Shown: positions 1,873-22,851 of the stretch, in pieces | Layout: every line of letters begins with the position of its first letter | Position numbering within the stretch: position 1 is the first letter of the stretch | Virus record (IMG/VR): IMGVR_UViG_2737471869_000024 | Location: 1-25,955 of that record | Reading direction: 5' to 3' (one strand) | From: a virus | Lineage: Duplodnaviria > Heunggongvirae > Uroviricota > Caudoviricetes | DNA: 25,955 bases | The notes under the pieces: model-generated | The model's input: only the letters and a program-made list of their open reading frames with translations | Told to the model about the DNA's origin: nothing | Databases searched by the model: none | Position numbers and translations under genes: made by a program

Positions 1873-3675
1873 TTATATCACCATATATCTGAAGCTTGCT
1901 CCGCCTGCAGCTGGAGAACCTGACTGCGTAGCAAGGACAAGACTTCCGTTTGATTGACTTAAAACATATGCATTTGCTGCTGCAGCTGAAGCATTTGCTG
2001 GGTGAATCACAACTTGTGAATAAGGTGTTATATTTTCATCAACTAGTGTTGCTGAAGCTACACCACTCAATCCATTGAATGACTTCATCACCATCTTTTC
2101 AGTTGCAGAAAGAAGGACGTTTCTTATTGTAAATGTACCTCCTCCAGTTGGGTTTAGCTTTGGAATGAGTGCACTTGTTACGGTTGTAAGATTGCAATTT
2201 GTCAGGACAAGATTATTTTGATAACTGGTAACCTGTGCAATACCTGAATTAACAACAGTGGCATTATTCACGGTGTTATCTGTAGCACCATCCGATTGGT
2301 TAACACCACTTTGTCCTGCAGCATTAATATAAGCTGAAAGAACTCTGGTATTTGCCGATCCTGCCGCAAAGTTAATACCGTTTTGCCCGCAAGTATTAAC
2401 ATAAACACTCTCAATTGTGGATCCTGTTGTTGGCAGTCCAGCATGTCCAAAGTTAATACCGTGGAAAAATTGCGTGTTGGTAGATATCAACTTTCCTGCC
2501 ATGCTCCAGCGGCAATCAAAACCAATGCCTGATGCTGATGCAAGATCCACAGATGCATAAAGCAAACGGTTATAATCACCACTAAATTGAATACCAGAAT
2601 AAGCGTCATCACCAGAAGCGCCTTGTGCATGCCCTAGTGCCGCAATACTTCTATTAGTTTTGTAAATATAAAACGCTTCATGCCCCCACGATTCAATCCG
2701 ATCAACGATAAACTTTGAGTAATGGCACTGATAGAAAAACAGGCAACCAGAGCCGTCATTGCGGATTCCATCTGGTGATGGTGCACTTATAAAAGTGCGA
2801 GGGTAGTAATGGTCATGGACATAATGAGCGTAAAAATCTACGTTCTGACACTCTGTCAGATAGACAAGATGGGTTCCAATCTGTCCTGATTGTCCTGCTT
2901 TATTACCATCAATCTCATTAATGTGAATTATTAGACCAGAGTTATTACCTGCTGCGTAAAGTAATCTGTCAAAGTCGACACATCCAGACGGTAATTTGAG
3001 CTTCCCCTTTACAATCACTTTTTTTGCTGAAGAAAGGTTGAGATTTTTTGCAACGAGAGTAAACCCTTCGGGAACAATCAGCATACCTGTATCGTCAATC
3101 ATCTTCTGAGCTGAGATTGATGATTCAACTTCGCTCACAGCTCCCCAATCTGCAACTGTAAGATTCTCTGCATTTTTTTCATGCTGAGTCCTTTTTACTG
3201 CTCCGGTATAAGGTTGAATAACAGGTATCATTGCATCTCCGTCGCTGATACCTGCACCAATCAAATCTGCAACAGTGTGACCAGGACAAAGACCTATTAA
3301 TGAGGCTCCATCATCACCAGACAACTCCTGTCTTAGCTGATCTGGATCATACTTCAACACGTTTGGATAGTTGAACTGCTGTGTACCATAAGCATCGTAC
3401 ACAGCCATAGAATGGCCTTGCACGGTAACGAATTTGGCAATCTGTCCGTTATATACAGGGTAACCAGCAGCGTTAATGATGATTGGTTGCGAAACAGGAA
3501 CGTGAGAGCCGTCTTCATTCTCCACATAAACCTGAATCTGGTTTTCAGGATTTACCGGGTCAGTGTCAATTTTACCGATATAAATTTTGCCATTGGCTAC
3601 GGCTTTAAAAGAACGCGCCATAGTGAAGAGTTGCGAAGGCATGCTTACCACAACATTTGCGGTGATATCTGTCAT
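1873..3675 (-). CDS. Tailspike protein (P22 gp9-type N-terminal head-binding domain fused to a different receptor-binding/O-antigen-cleaving beta-helix domain)
   Basis: 600 aa. The first ~110 residues ([46 protein letters not shown]...NVLKYDPDQ) closely match the P22 tailspike head-binding domain as I recall it. The remainder is Gly/Ser/Asn/Thr-rich and beta-helix-like but does not resemble the P22 receptor domain. GGAG RBS upstream. Last gene of the virion module. Confidence 0.9.
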
Positions 3676-3776: not shown

Positions 3777-4712
3777 TCAGTAGTTATGTACTGAAGGAGG
3801 TAATTCTTTATTCTTAAGTCTCATCCATGCGGAAAGATTCGTTGGTCCGTCTGGCTCATTGATATCAACATCTCGTGTGTGGTTTATTAAAACGTCTCTC
3901 GCCATTCCGATAACATACGAGAATTCATGACCGTAGTCGTAGCATCTGCCGGAATAGTTCGATTGAATTTGTTTTAGCGCCGGATACAGTTCGCGGAATA
4001 ATGCCTGTGAGCGGTTGGCATAATCCCATAACCATACAAGGCTGTTTGCTTCTTTTGCAGAAAGCTCGTTGGTTCTCTTCTCTTGTTTTCCAATGAACTC
4101 ACCTTCAAGTGGAACTCGAGCTGCAAGTGATAGTGCTTCGGTAAACTGCTCATCACTGATTTCTTTGTACGAACATCCAAAATGGGATTTTAGTGACGAC
4201 CACATGGTGATCATCGCCTTAGCCTGTTTTTCTTTTGGCAGAGACTGACCGCGACTCATGACGAGTTGTTTAATGGCTTCCTGCTGTTCAGTGGTGATTT
4301 TACCCGGCAACGCCTTTTTAGCTTTGCGTGGGTTAAATACATGACCTTTAGTCCAGTAGTCATGCAGCACGCTAAAGCATTCTTCCTGGTACTGAATCAG
4401 TTTATCACGGATGTCAGCACGAACTTTCTCAGGGTTGATGCTGAACAGCCATCCATTTAACTTCTTCAGCGGGATGCATAAAAGCTTACGTAACTTGCCA
4501 TCAGCAGCAACCATAGAGATATCTCTACAGTTGAATTTGTCCTTCATTTTACGCAACTTAACAGATTGACCAGTCCAGTCGATACCAATGTTTTCCACAA
4601 TTTGACGCATCGCTACATAAGTCACTCCGGCAGCCATAGCGGTTAAAATCTGCTGACCATTGAAAGGCACGTAAGAGGTGTTCACTGCTTCTAAAATTGC
4701 TATACTATTCAT
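3777..4712 (-). CDS. ant: Antirepressor Ant (immI region)
   Basis: The protein from the internal ATG at 4712 ([30 protein letters not shown]...) matches the P22 Ant N-terminus as I recall it. GGAG-type RBS upstream of that ATG. The supplied ORF extends 22 codons further upstream, which is probably not translated. Confidence 0.9.
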
Positions 4713-4780
4713 GTTGGTTTTTCTCCACGAATTTACCGACAACCGAAGCCCTGACTGTTCCAGCAGTTGGGGCTTCAACT

Positions 4781-4942
4781 TTACGCGCCAATGCGCCCTT
4801 CCTTCTTAAAGCTGTCCATTACTCTCTGATAAATCTCAGAGTTAACAGACCGACCATTCTCTTCCGCCACCTTGCGTACCAAATCCAATACTTCTTTAGG
4901 CCACCGCAAATTGAACTGCGGCATTTTTCTTGCGCCTTGCAT
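4781..4942 (-). CDS. arc: Arc repressor (ribbon-helix-helix)
   Basis: The 53-aa product from the ATG at 4942 ([53 protein letters not shown]) is near-identical to P22 Arc. GGAG lies 7 nt upstream. Confidence 0.88.
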
Positions 4943-5035
4943 ATTCCACTCCATTCCATTAAATGATAGCACCGTACTACTATTGAAAGCGTACTACTAC
5001 CGTTCTAGCATGTCAACAAATAACAGGAGAGCGAC
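4943..5035. promoter_or_regulatory. Divergent Pant/Pmnt control region with an Oarc-like operator and tandem direct repeats
   Basis: The 21-mer ATGATAGCACCGTACTACTAT (4963..4983) shares both arms (ATGATAG ... CTACTAT) with the P22 arc operator as I recall it. A perfect TTGACA -35 hexamer lies on the minus strand (5011..5016), and a TTGAAA -35-like hexamer on the plus strand (4983..4988). A 10-bp direct repeat CGTACTACTA occurs at 4973..4982 and 4990..4999. Confidence 0.45.
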
Positions 5036-5275
5036 GTGGCTAGAAACGATCCACAATTTAACGTAAGAATGCCAAGTGAAATCAAGCAGCAGCTTACTCA
5101 CATTGCGGCAACAAACAGGCGCTCTATCAATGCTGAAATCATAGCTGCAATACAGCTATGGATTAAGATTAACAGAGAAAAGGTCATACCATCGACATCT
5201 CAAGATCTCACAAAAACAGAGAAGGAAGCAATGGATATTGCAATTAGCGTACTTAAGAAGATTCGAGGCCAATAA
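5036..5275 (+). CDS. mnt: Mnt-like ribbon-helix-helix repressor (divergent variant)
   Basis: 79 aa with a GTG start preceded by AGGAGA. The N-terminus MARNDPQFNVRMPSEIKQQL resembles P22 Mnt (MARDDPHFNFRMP...), but the DNA-contacting beta-strand (His to Gln) and the whole C-terminal half differ. It is divergent from arc, as in P22 immI. Confidence 0.8.
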   Translation: MARNDPQFNVRMPSEIKQQLTHIAATNRRSINAEIIAAIQLWIKINREKVIPSTSQDLTKTEKEAMDIAISVLKKIRGQ

Positions 5276-5622
5276 TGAGCAGTAAGGAGCAATACTTAAA
5301 AGTTACTTTTGAGTCTTTTAGTAATTACTTGACTTCATTCAAAAAAACTTATGTATGCCCAATATGCAGCAATACAAACTGGACTCTTTTAGCACCGGAG
5401 CATCTTAAAAAAGATGATGGTGTTGAAGTTATAGGCCCATCCATACCAGGTAAAAGCTTGCCTAATAATCCTGTTAATCAAGATACTTATAGCAACGATA
5501 GTCTTAACATGGTAGCCATGCAATGCACCACTTGCGGTTTCTTCCACTTTTTTAGTTTAAACAAAGTTAGTGAAAATATCTCTTCTGGAAAATTCGTAAA
5601 GGGTGATGGAGATAATGTTTGA
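5275..5622 (+). CDS. Hypothetical Cys4 zinc-ribbon protein (cargo gene, translationally coupled to mnt)
   Basis: 115 aa. Its ATG overlaps the mnt TAA (TAATG), with GAGG 7 nt upstream. Two CxxC pairs (C28/C31, C84/C87). The region looks AT-rich compared with the flanking structural genes. No recognisable family. Confidence 0.6.
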   Translation: MSSKEQYLKVTFESFSNYLTSFKKTYVCPICSNTNWTLLAPEHLKKDDGVEVIGPSIPGKSLPNNPVNQDTYSNDSLNMVAMQCTTCGFFHFFSLNKVSENISSGKFVKGDGDNV

Positions 5623-6115
5623 CCAACATGTTCACAATAAATCACCTAGTATTTATGGAGATGCTCAAAGCCAACATGAAAACCTTGACTTTGACAAATC
5701 GTTATGGAGTTCAATAGAAAACGCTAAATATTCAGAGTATTACAGACCAACTGGCAGAAATCCGTCAAAGGAACCACAAATATTTAGCCTACAAGAAGAG
5801 CAACACAAAGAAGAAGGTCGTGATACCGTGAAACGTTTAGAGCTATACGGGGTTGCAGTTGCTATCATTGGTTCTATCGTTGCCGCCACATGGACGATTC
5901 GAGGCACTATAGATGATAAAGTTGAATCATCACGACAAGAGCTAACAGGAAACATCCAAACCAGTAAGGCAGAGATAATGGCTACTATCCAAAACAACCA
6001 ATCAGTATTACAGTCAAGGATTGATAACACTGATCAAAAATTAGACTCGACAAACCAATCTCTTTATAAGGTATTGGCTATATTAGAGTCTCAAAAAGAC
6101 AAACGTTCTCAATAG
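5606..6115 (+). CDS. Hypothetical single-pass membrane protein with C-terminal coiled-coil-like domain (cargo gene)
   Basis: About 166-170 aa. Possible starts are GTG 5603, ATG 5606 and ATG 5615, all overlapping the end of the upstream ORF. One strongly hydrophobic segment (LELYGVAVAIIGSIVAATWTI) is flanked by K/R. The C-terminal ~70 aa are Q/S/T/N-rich with heptad-like spacing. Confidence 0.6.
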   Translation: MEIMFDQHVHNKSPSIYGDAQSQHENLDFDKSLWSSIENAKYSEYYRPTGRNPSKEPQIFSLQEEQHKEEGRDTVKRLELYGVAVAIIGSIVAATWTIRGTIDDKVESSRQELTGNIQTSKAEIMATIQNNQSVLQSRIDNTDQKLDSTNQSLYKVLAILESQKDKRSQ

Positions 6116-6195: not shown

Positions 6196-6516
6196 ATGTA
6201 CATATCGCTCTCTACCATTTTTTTCATCTGCTTAGCTATTTGGCTTTTAAGAATATGGCAGGATTGCTCTGTCAGCCATGCTGCTGCGGTGAGAAATAAA
6301 AACGCCCTCATAAAAGAAGCTGAAAACGTTGTCTTATCAATGGATCACCTTTCATGGACCGAGATGACTACAGGGCAACAAGAGGTTTATGAGTGTGCGA
6401 TTGAGCGGTTAAGGCTGCTTAAATCGTACAAAAAGAACCACGCTCCCGACTCATTCCCATTCCTGAAAGAATGGCCGAGATGGTATGACCCGAAAAAAGC
6501 AACCATCAACCGCTAA
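6196..6516 (+). CDS. Hypothetical small membrane-anchored protein (cargo gene)
   Basis: 106 aa with a strong RBS (AAGGAG, 7 nt spacing). N-terminal hydrophobic segment MYISLSTIFFICLAIWLLRIW, either a signal anchor or a signal peptide (possible AxA-like site SHA-AAV). The stop codon lies 8 bp from the convergent gp16 stop. Confidence 0.6.
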   Translation: MYISLSTIFFICLAIWLLRIWQDCSVSHAAAVRNKNALIKEAENVVLSMDHLSWTEMTTGQQEVYECAIERLRLLKSYKKNHAPDSFPFLKEWPRWYDPKKATINR

Positions 6517-22695: not shown

Positions 22696-22771
22696 TGGTG
22701 CTGGTTAACGGACTTGAACCGCTACCCATTCGCTTACAAGGCGACTGCTCTACCATTGGAGCTAAACCAGC
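22696..22771 (-). tRNA. tRNA-Thr(UGU)-like gene
   Basis: Manual fold of the 76-nt minus-strand sequence GCTGGTTTAGCTCCAATGGTAGAGCAGTCGCCTTGTAAGCGAATGGGTAGCGGTTCAAGTCCGTTAACCAGCACCA. Perfect 7-bp acceptor stem, 4-bp D stem with GG in the loop, anticodon loop CTTGTAA, T-loop TTCAAGT and an encoded CCA. Confidence 0.55.
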
Positions 22772-22776
22772 ATATT

Positions 22777-22851
22777 TGGCGGGACAGCGTGGACTCGAAC
22801 CACGATAAGAAGGTTAACAGCCTTCCGTAATGACCTTTATACGACTGACCC
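22777..22851 (-). tRNA. tRNA-Asn(GUU)-like gene (imperfect)
   Basis: 75-nt minus-strand sequence with T-arm CGTGG-TTCGAGT-CCACG, anticodon arm GAAGG-CTGTTAA-CCTTC and a CCA end, but one mismatch in the acceptor stem and a weak D stem. Could be a degenerate tRNA. Confidence 0.4.

Follow-up and report, generated by a model that had tools for sequence, protein, structure and literature searches.

The Arc and Mnt repressors of phage P22 are textbook models of DNA recognition by a beta-sheet, and their specificity has been mapped with engineered hybrids. In ribbon-helix-helix (RHH) proteins, strand positions 2, 4 and 6 touch bases (PMC3413123), and a single residue change in Mnt moves its site preference, mainly at two adjacent positions (PMC1184061). 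Variability of the P22-like 'ant moron' is documented, with experimental study limited to the P22 version (PMC2629481; PMC8022706). Here we analyse the 93-bp control region (4943..5035) between an arc gene and an mnt-like gene in IMG/VR virus record IMGVR_UViG_2737471869_000024, a 25,955-bp stretch of Caudoviricetes DNA that is referred to as the window throughout. Because the gene order (tailspike, ant, arc, 93-bp region, mnt-like gene) is that of P22 immI and the sar antisense RNA lies between ant and arc, the window locus, from a P22-like phage of E. coli, is a complete immI switch. The region keeps the architecture of P22 immI, and we consider it probable that it carries a different specificity cassette, in which Mnt would act at one dyad operator (site B) and Arc at a second one (site A).

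As a reference we used the annotated P22 record BK000583 (locus L001 in our numbering), in which Pant, Pmnt, Oarc and Omnt are marked, and aligned the window and Salmonella phage Emek to it. The arc-strand sequence of the control region is TTGACATGATAGAAGCACTCTACTATATTCTCAATAGGTCCACGGTGGACCTGT in P22 and TTGACATGCTAGAACGGTAGTAGTACGCTTTCAATAGTAGTACGGTGCTATCAT in the window. The following elements were located in the window:

5011 to 5016, minus strand: Pant -35 hexamer, TTGACA, column for column with the -35 of the annotated P22 arc/ant promoter.
4988 to 4993, minus strand: Pant -10 hexamer, TACGCT, after a 17-bp spacer, placed by positional homology to P22 (TATATT).
4983 to 4988, plus strand: Pmnt -35 hexamer, TTGAAA, from the promoter scan (TTGAAA-17-TAGCAT), homologous to P22 Pmnt (TTGAGA-17-TATCAT).
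5006 to 5011, plus strand: Pmnt -10 hexamer, TAGCAT, from the promoter scan and the P22 alignment.
4963 to 4983, no strand assigned: site B, predicted Mnt operator, centre 4973, aligned to P22 Omnt with the same centre and lying over the Pant start.
4991 to 5011, no strand assigned: site A, predicted Arc operator, centre 5001, aligned to the annotated P22 Oarc.
4973 to 4982, plus strand: first copy of the 10-bp repeat CGTACTACTA, comprising the left subsite of B and its centre (TAGTAGTACG on the arc strand).
4990 to 4999, plus strand: second copy of CGTACTACTA, comprising the right subsite of A and the next base, and overlapping the Pant -10.

The leftward Pant and the rightward Pmnt overlap face to face at the P22 positions, and the perfect TTGACA that an earlier note on this sequence had pointed out (minus strand, 5016..5011) falls exactly where P22 has its Pant -35. 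In both promoters, site A occupies the space between the -35 and the -10 hexamer; site B is found downstream of the Pant -10. Their arc-strand sequences are ATGC TAGAAC G GTAGTA GTAC for site A and ATAG TAGTAC G GTGCTA TCAT for site B (21-mer ATGATAGCACCGTACTACTAT). Both are dyads of the form TANNAC-G-GTNNTA, with their centres 28 bp apart in both phages (868 and 896 in L001 for P22, 4973 and 5001 in the window). Across the whole window, the pattern TANNACSGTNNTA matches only A and B, with 0.07 matches expected, and the longer pattern ATNNTANNACSGTNNTANNAT matches B without a mismatch and A with one. The P22 operator sequences themselves (Oarc TAGA-N5-TCTA and Omnt GGTCCAC-G-GTGGACC) are not found at these sites, site A having one TAGA box. 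Both A and B are centred on the Mnt-type AC-G-GT, and the centre of P22 Oarc is AG-C-AC. Site B matches P22 Omnt at 11/21 positions; the P22 immI alignment uncovered no canonical Mnt operator, and the best match to a P22-type Omnt anywhere in the window is 13/21. The earlier note was therefore correct that no P22-type Omnt is present, but in turning to direct repeats instead it overlooked the dyad TAGTAC-G-GTGCTA at the Omnt position.

Scans of IMG/VR viral contigs returned 31 loci with the Mnt query and 80 loci with the Arc query, and a scan of genome contigs with the Mnt protein returned just two distant loci (L010 and L011). Defining the Mnt type of the window as ARxDPQFNVRMP gave 28 loci with 16 distinct control regions, and site B is present in all 28. 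It is kept as TATTAC-G-GTGATA in L018, which has neither an arc gene nor site A, and is likewise kept in L035 and L036/L038, where the partner protein has no Arc-like N-terminus. In Emek the core of site B is a perfect palindrome, TAGTAC-G-GTACTA, and symmetric positions number 7/10 in Emek and 9/10 in L032. The segment from TTGACA to the centre of B is near-invariant across diverged lineages. Site B was assigned to Mnt because of its Omnt position and its retention with this Mnt type even where Arc is missing, and the comparison makes it a probable Mnt operator.

A different pattern of conservation marks site A. Its left half, TAGAAC, is invariant in 13/13 distinct Arc-containing regions and is changed or absent in the three without Arc; its TAGA box recurs in the two halves of P22 Oarc. 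Among the Arc-containing regions, the right half of A and site B vary, whereas the TAGA of A never changes. We assigned the left half of A to Arc since it has the TAGA box and is invariant solely where Arc is present, and on balance site A would be the Arc operator. Half-site positions 1, 2, 5, 6, 9 and 10 (AT..TA..AC) are the same throughout eight distinct Arc-containing regions, and positions 3, 4, 7 and 8 vary in all half-sites but the left half of A. Half-site position 8 is weakly indicated as the discriminator between the two repressors; the left half of site A has an A there, and Mnt-type subsites have a pyrimidine. Position 6 is A with Gln6 proteins, including Arc, and T with P22 (His6), in a comparison of few lineages.

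The arrangement of the two dyads accounts for the tandem repeat that first drew attention to this region. The sequence CGTACTACTA occurs exactly as the earlier note described, at 4973..4982 and 4990..4999, with no third exact copy in the window, and shuffling of the 93-bp region produced an exact 10-mer repeat in 80 of 20,000 shuffles. In each operator a central G/C is flanked by two 10-bp subsites, and (A/G)T-RR-TA-KY-AC describes all four of them. Taken by itself, the right subsite of A is near-palindromic (GTAGT-AGTAC; GTAAT-ATTAC in L017) and hence can also be read as a forward copy. Positions 13-22 of A and 2-11 of B are identical at 7-10 of 10 positions in 15 of the 16 distinct control regions and at 5/10 in the arc-less L018; these values soften the reading, suggested by L017 and L033, that the direct repeat is unconserved. 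The repeat is thus real and non-random, yet it is a by-product of two adjacent dyads of one subsite type and does not represent a new class of tandem-repeat operator. The suggestion that direct repeats replace a palindromic operator is not supported, as each 10-mer is a subsite of a different dyad.

The variant Mnt has the reading head ARNDPQFNVRM, compared with ARDDPHFNFRM in P22 Mnt. As the earlier note had observed, the His6 'master' specificity residue of P22 Mnt is replaced by Gln. The protein has an N-terminal Arc-like RHH domain, with 1MNT as the closest solved structure (match over residues 2-41), and aligns with P22 Mnt solely over residues 1-40 (48% identity). PF11423, the Mnt C-terminal domain associated with tetramerisation, is absent from the variant Mnt and its relatives and scores 72.9 bits in P22 Mnt; hhalign of the two C-terminal alignments (variant against P22 Mnt) returned a probability of 0.2%. 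Remote kinship of the C-terminal half with the P22 tetramerisation domain was considered and dropped, with nothing found by BLASTP, Pfam or hhalign, in agreement with the earlier description of this half as unrelated. A single-sequence AlphaFold2 (AF2) model contains a C-terminal helix at residues 57-78 at low confidence (predicted local distance difference test, pLDDT, 59; predicted template modelling score, pTM, 0.30) that supports no reading finer than secondary structure, and from this model oligomerisation through another helix appears possible. The earlier proposal that this Mnt has a different operator is supported, and the protein almost certainly recognises a site other than P22 Omnt.

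Arc is far closer to its P22 counterpart, with 48/53 identical residues and the same PQFNLRW strand (Gln9, Asn11, Arg13), as had been noticed before. The substitutions are K2Q, M4A, S5R, R16K and E43D. The first three fall within the N-terminal arm, which is MQGARK here in place of the P22 arm MKGMSK. Nucleotide identity to P22 is 93% in the sar/arc-ant spacer, 97% in arc codons 7-53 (4781..4924), 67% in arc codons 1-6 (4925..4942), 59% in the intergenic region, 58% in mnt codons 1-40 and 44% in the rest of mnt. The drop from 97% to 67% places a mosaic junction inside arc, at codons 6/7, with the N-terminal arm on one side and the beta-strand on the other. Among the 80 Arc loci, 11 have the MQGARK arm together with sites A/B and a Gln6 Mnt, MKGMSK occurs with a His6 Mnt and the P22 operators in the remaining 69, and no recombinants between the two combinations were found. 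The swapped specificity cassette consists of mnt, both operators and arc codons 1-6.

This exchange also brings the two repressors closer to one another. In the alignment, Arc Ala4-Arg5 pairs with Mnt Ala1-Arg2, Pro8 with Pro5, and Gln9 with residue 6. Knight and Sauer (1992) reportedly identified Arg2, His6, Asn8 and Arg10 as the contact residues of Mnt. Since Arc has gained the Ala4-Arg5 arm and Mnt has Gln6 like Gln9 of Arc, both repressors present Arg/Gln/Asn/Arg at the four positions aligned to these residues. The reading heads of Arc and Mnt are identical at 7/11 positions here and at 4/11 in P22. Similarly, A and B share 13/21 positions (15/21 in opposite orientation), compared with 6-7/21 for P22 Oarc and Omnt.

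On this basis, the circuit is expected to work much like that of P22. Prophage Mnt, expressed from Pmnt, would bind site B over the Pant start, so that arc-ant is silenced and Pmnt stays free, as in P22. After infection or derepression, Arc produced from Pant would bind site A inside both promoter spacers and shut both promoters. The sar RNA would contribute antisense control of ant.

Several points weigh against this assignment. The Pant -10 (TACGCT) agrees with the consensus at only 3/6 positions and was missed by the consensus scan. P22 Oarc is matched less well by site A (12/21) than by site B (16/21, plus strand). The right half of A, GTAGTA (TACTAC on the other strand), lacks a TAGA box and resembles an Mnt subsite, so that a symmetric Arc tetramer on A is not assured. 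The loci compared share descent, and their agreement is evidence of conservation and not independent replication. A simple code in which Gln6 specifies a TAG box was rejected, as the Mnt of phages ST64T, L and Gally and that of L039 have Gln6 beside GACCAC-type sites; the Q/N/R head alone does not predict the operator, because the ST64T/L-type Gln6 Mnt adjoins GACCAC-C-GTGGTC. In L039, an ARNDPQFNLRM Mnt is accompanied by an ST64T-like site at position B and by TATTAC-G-GTGGTA at position A. The partner protein in L039 is Arc-like (MKDARKLPVFNIRMP).

The earlier note made the opposite assignment, in which 4963..4983 is a conserved Arc operator and Mnt, having no palindrome, would bind the two CGTACTACTA repeats 17 bp apart. 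The Oarc-like 21-mer does exist, its 16/21 matches including the outer arms ATGATAG and CTACTAT, and the exact repeat is both improbable by chance and largely retained among the distinct control regions, as described above. However, at least 16/21 matches to Oarc were reached in 20 of 200 shuffled 26-kb windows, and the resemblance is therefore meaningful only through its location. That location is the Omnt position and dyad centre, outside the -35/-10 interval, and the site that is homologous to Oarc (4991..5011) shares only 12/21 positions with P22 Oarc. Moreover, the 21-mer persists with this Mnt in the arc-less L018 and in loci with a non-Arc partner, and its box changes from G to T at position 7 in the Arc-containing L020 and L033, where the TAGA of A is constant. 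As for the repeats, two dimers offset by 17 bp would not lie on the same face of the helix, L018 has a single copy, and both copies are accounted for as subsites of two dyads with one consensus. We regard this assignment as very unlikely. The sequence facts of the earlier note are right, and its two operators are assigned the wrong way round.

A subtler departure from the P22-like circuit would be for Arc and Mnt each to bind both sites usefully, for example with Mnt autoregulating Pmnt through a weaker site A; alternatively, A could be a hybrid operator whose left subsite is Arc-type and whose right subsite is Mnt-type. The logic of the circuit would then depart from the strictly separate recognition of P22. 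The similarity of the heads and of the operators relative to P22 speaks for this, as do the Mnt-type AC-G-GT centre common to both sites and the makeup of the right half of A, which agrees with the Mnt subsite consensus in having a pyrimidine at position 8 and shares its 10-mer with the left half of B. L036/L038 retain a second site, TCGCAC-G-GTACTA, although their partner protein has its own palindrome (GACTATAGTC). Distant Q/N/R Mnt-like genes (L010, L011/L040, L037 and L041), Acinetobacter examples among them, carry two or three upstream TAnnAC-S-GTnnTA sites, from which multi-site binding by a single Q/N/R Mnt-like protein would appear to be common. Conversely, non-contact residues differ between the two repressors (ARKMP and ARNDP; strand cores L/W and V/M) and could separate their specificities, and the invariant TAGAAC found in A alone speaks for some discrimination. 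Cross-binding of this kind partly coincides with the P22-like assignment and does not exclude it, but as a description of the circuit in its own right we judge it rather unlikely. A related and still tentative proposal, for which we see somewhat more room but which we would not expect to hold, is that the paralogous repressors of one switch have converged, with Arg/Gln/Asn/Arg in both, nearly the same operators and a composite site A. If so, whether through cross-binding or through discrimination by one base pair per subsite together with non-contact residues, the locus would be a naturally rewired immI circuit, for instance with Mnt autoregulation of Pmnt through A, and a natural test case for how related RHH proteins keep or lose orthogonality. 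Finally, repeat and dyads might have arisen by chance or be left over from an immI region in decay, without a regulatory role. Degradation of P22-like 'ant morons' is frequent, as seen in phages L/ST64T, HK620 and Scho1 (PMC2629481; PMC8022706), and the Pant -10 is weak. Here, however, none of arc, ant, mnt and sar is disrupted, 41 complete E. coli genomes carry the region unchanged, the segment from TTGACA to the centre of B is maintained across lineages, and the dyad motif count is far above chance, which makes decay highly improbable.

Region 4700..5300 shares 99.8% identity with Escherichia phages N7 (MH717096) and HZ41 and, over its first 385 bases, 82.5% identity with P22; these P22-like phages belong to the genus Lederbergvirus. 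The gene order, the P22 alignment and sar bear out the earlier identification of an immI control region, and divergent mnt and arc-ant units flank a control region of ~90 bp, as in P22-type immI. The genes and RNA of the locus are as follows:

1873 to 3675, minus strand: tailspike gene, part of the P22-like order.
3777 to 4712, minus strand: ant, the antirepressor gene and regulated output of the switch (Pfam P22_AR_N and P22_AR_C, in agreement with the N7 GenBank annotation).
4713 to 4780, plus strand: sar antisense RNA (Rfam RF00262, 90.6 bits with a gathering score of 43).
4781 to 4942, minus strand: arc, 53 aa, leading gene of the ant operon (Pfam PF03869, 106.4 bits).
5036 to 5275, plus strand: variant mnt, 79 aa, GTG start (PF03869 at 49.2 bits).

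The sar RNA occupies the arc-ant spacer exactly and shares 93% identity with its P22 counterpart, so that this locus retains an intact antisense layer of immI control. Annotation of the two repressor genes in public records differs from ours in several respects. The mnt-like coding sequence of N7 in GenBank begins at Met12 (window position 5069; 2870..3076 in locus L002), which cuts off the DNA-reading beta-strand, and the N7 arc begins upstream of the P22-homologous ATG (174 nt compared with 162). Homology to P22 Mnt and Arc supports starts at GTG 5036 for mnt and ATG 4942 for arc. Both repressors are listed in databases merely as 'Arc family DNA-binding protein', and Mnt homologues are named 'partition protein ATPase' in RefSeq phage records and in PHROG 2685/795. 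For an 80-aa RHH repressor, the latter looks like a propagated misannotation.

Three plus-strand open reading frames (ORFs) follow mnt, at 5275..5622, 5603..6115 and 6196..6516, the first overlapping the mnt stop codon (ATGA). Their PHROG matches (phrog_4293, 24865 and 10450) are of unknown function, and PADLOC gave no hits on any of the three. The 115-aa protein after mnt has a zinc-ribbon-like CxxC...CxxC arrangement, and a homologue also follows mnt in the arc-less L018. Lying at the place of the P22 sieA region, the three ORFs may be morons expressed from the prophage. Within arc, a terminator-like hairpin with a T-run (CCGCAAATTGAACTGCGG CATTTTTCTT) is found at 4904..4931 on the plus strand, antisense to codons 8-14. 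The sequence coding for PQFNLRW is an inverted repeat, and the stem sequence of the hairpin also occurs in P22. The scan for terminator-like hairpins gave one match with 0.6 expected, so that chance is possible. Elsewhere in the window, adjacent minus-strand tRNA genes, tRNA-Thr(TGT) and tRNA-Asn(GTT), are found at 22696..22771 and 22777..22851.

The identical region is present in 41 of 5,426 complete E. coli genomes, and a variant at 80-90% identity is found in 33 more (74 in total). A well-known switch with P22 architecture and logic is thus represented here by a specificity variant that is common yet uncharacterised, and our literature search found no paper describing operators of the N7/Emek type. 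New are the operators, the C-terminal half of Mnt and the Arc arm, and the recognition apparatus is unusually similar in both repressors. The cassette would define a new immI immunity specificity and is a natural counterpart of the engineered hybrids, with arm, partner repressor and both operators exchanged as a unit. The natural protein-operator pairs of the P22, ST64T, N7/Emek and CUS-3 types could be used to test the RHH recognition code, and Proteus phage Brookers, L042 and L039 are natural variants useful for decoding RHH specificity. L042 contains the perfect palindrome TAGAAC-G-GTTCTA.

Compared with P22 immI (Sauer et al. 1983; annotated BK000583), the window agrees in the order ant, sar, arc, control region, mnt, in the position of TTGACA, in the face-to-face overlapping promoters, in the two 21-bp dyads 28 bp apart from centre to centre and in the 97% nucleotide identity of the arc body. 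It differs in both operators (12/21 positions shared by A and Oarc, 11/21 by B and Omnt), in an Mnt with Gln6 and a C-terminal half without detectable similarity and without PF11423, in the Arc arm MQGARK (MKGMSK in P22) and in the Pant -10 TACGCT (TATATT in P22). In addition, the two operators of the window resemble each other, whereas those of P22 do not.

The Mnt of ST64T, phage L and Gally (GRDDPQFNLRLP) shares Gln6, Asn8 and Arg10 with the window protein, and its upstream dyad AAGACCAC-C-GTGGTCTT has the AC-S-GT centre at the equivalent place before mnt. In contrast, its half-site box is GACCAC where the window has TAKYAC, its C-terminal half is P22-like (…GYRDDAER…LVFEKLKDFY…), although PF11423 is unreported for ST64T Mnt, and these phages are without arc and ant. 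Brookers (L008) links the two types through a mixed site, GACCAC-G-GTGATA, composed of an ST64T-type half and an N7-type half.

Engineered Arc/Mnt hybrids and Mnt residue-6 variants were reported by Knight and Sauer in 1989, by Raumann, Knight and Sauer in 1995 and by Silbaq et al. in 2002. In these, a short N-terminal segment (arm and beta-strand), notably residue 6, reportedly sets operator choice, and the natural cassette similarly exchanges Arc codons 1-6 together with the operators. Unlike the hybrids, which are laboratory constructs on P22 operators, the cassette of the window is natural and known from sequence.

The immI regions of CUS-3 (L004) and SEN22 (L005) provide a further parallel, with divergent RHH genes (Mnt MSDRKYKNPQVNLRLP, partner MKVKTLRMP), a TTGACT -35 and a 9-bp direct repeat, ATGCGTACC, that occurs twice, 21 bp apart, upstream of mnt. 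They differ from the window in their proteins and sites and have no Arc-type TAGA box, but the layout of their repeat is that of the window, the promoter spacer holding one copy and the other following the -10.

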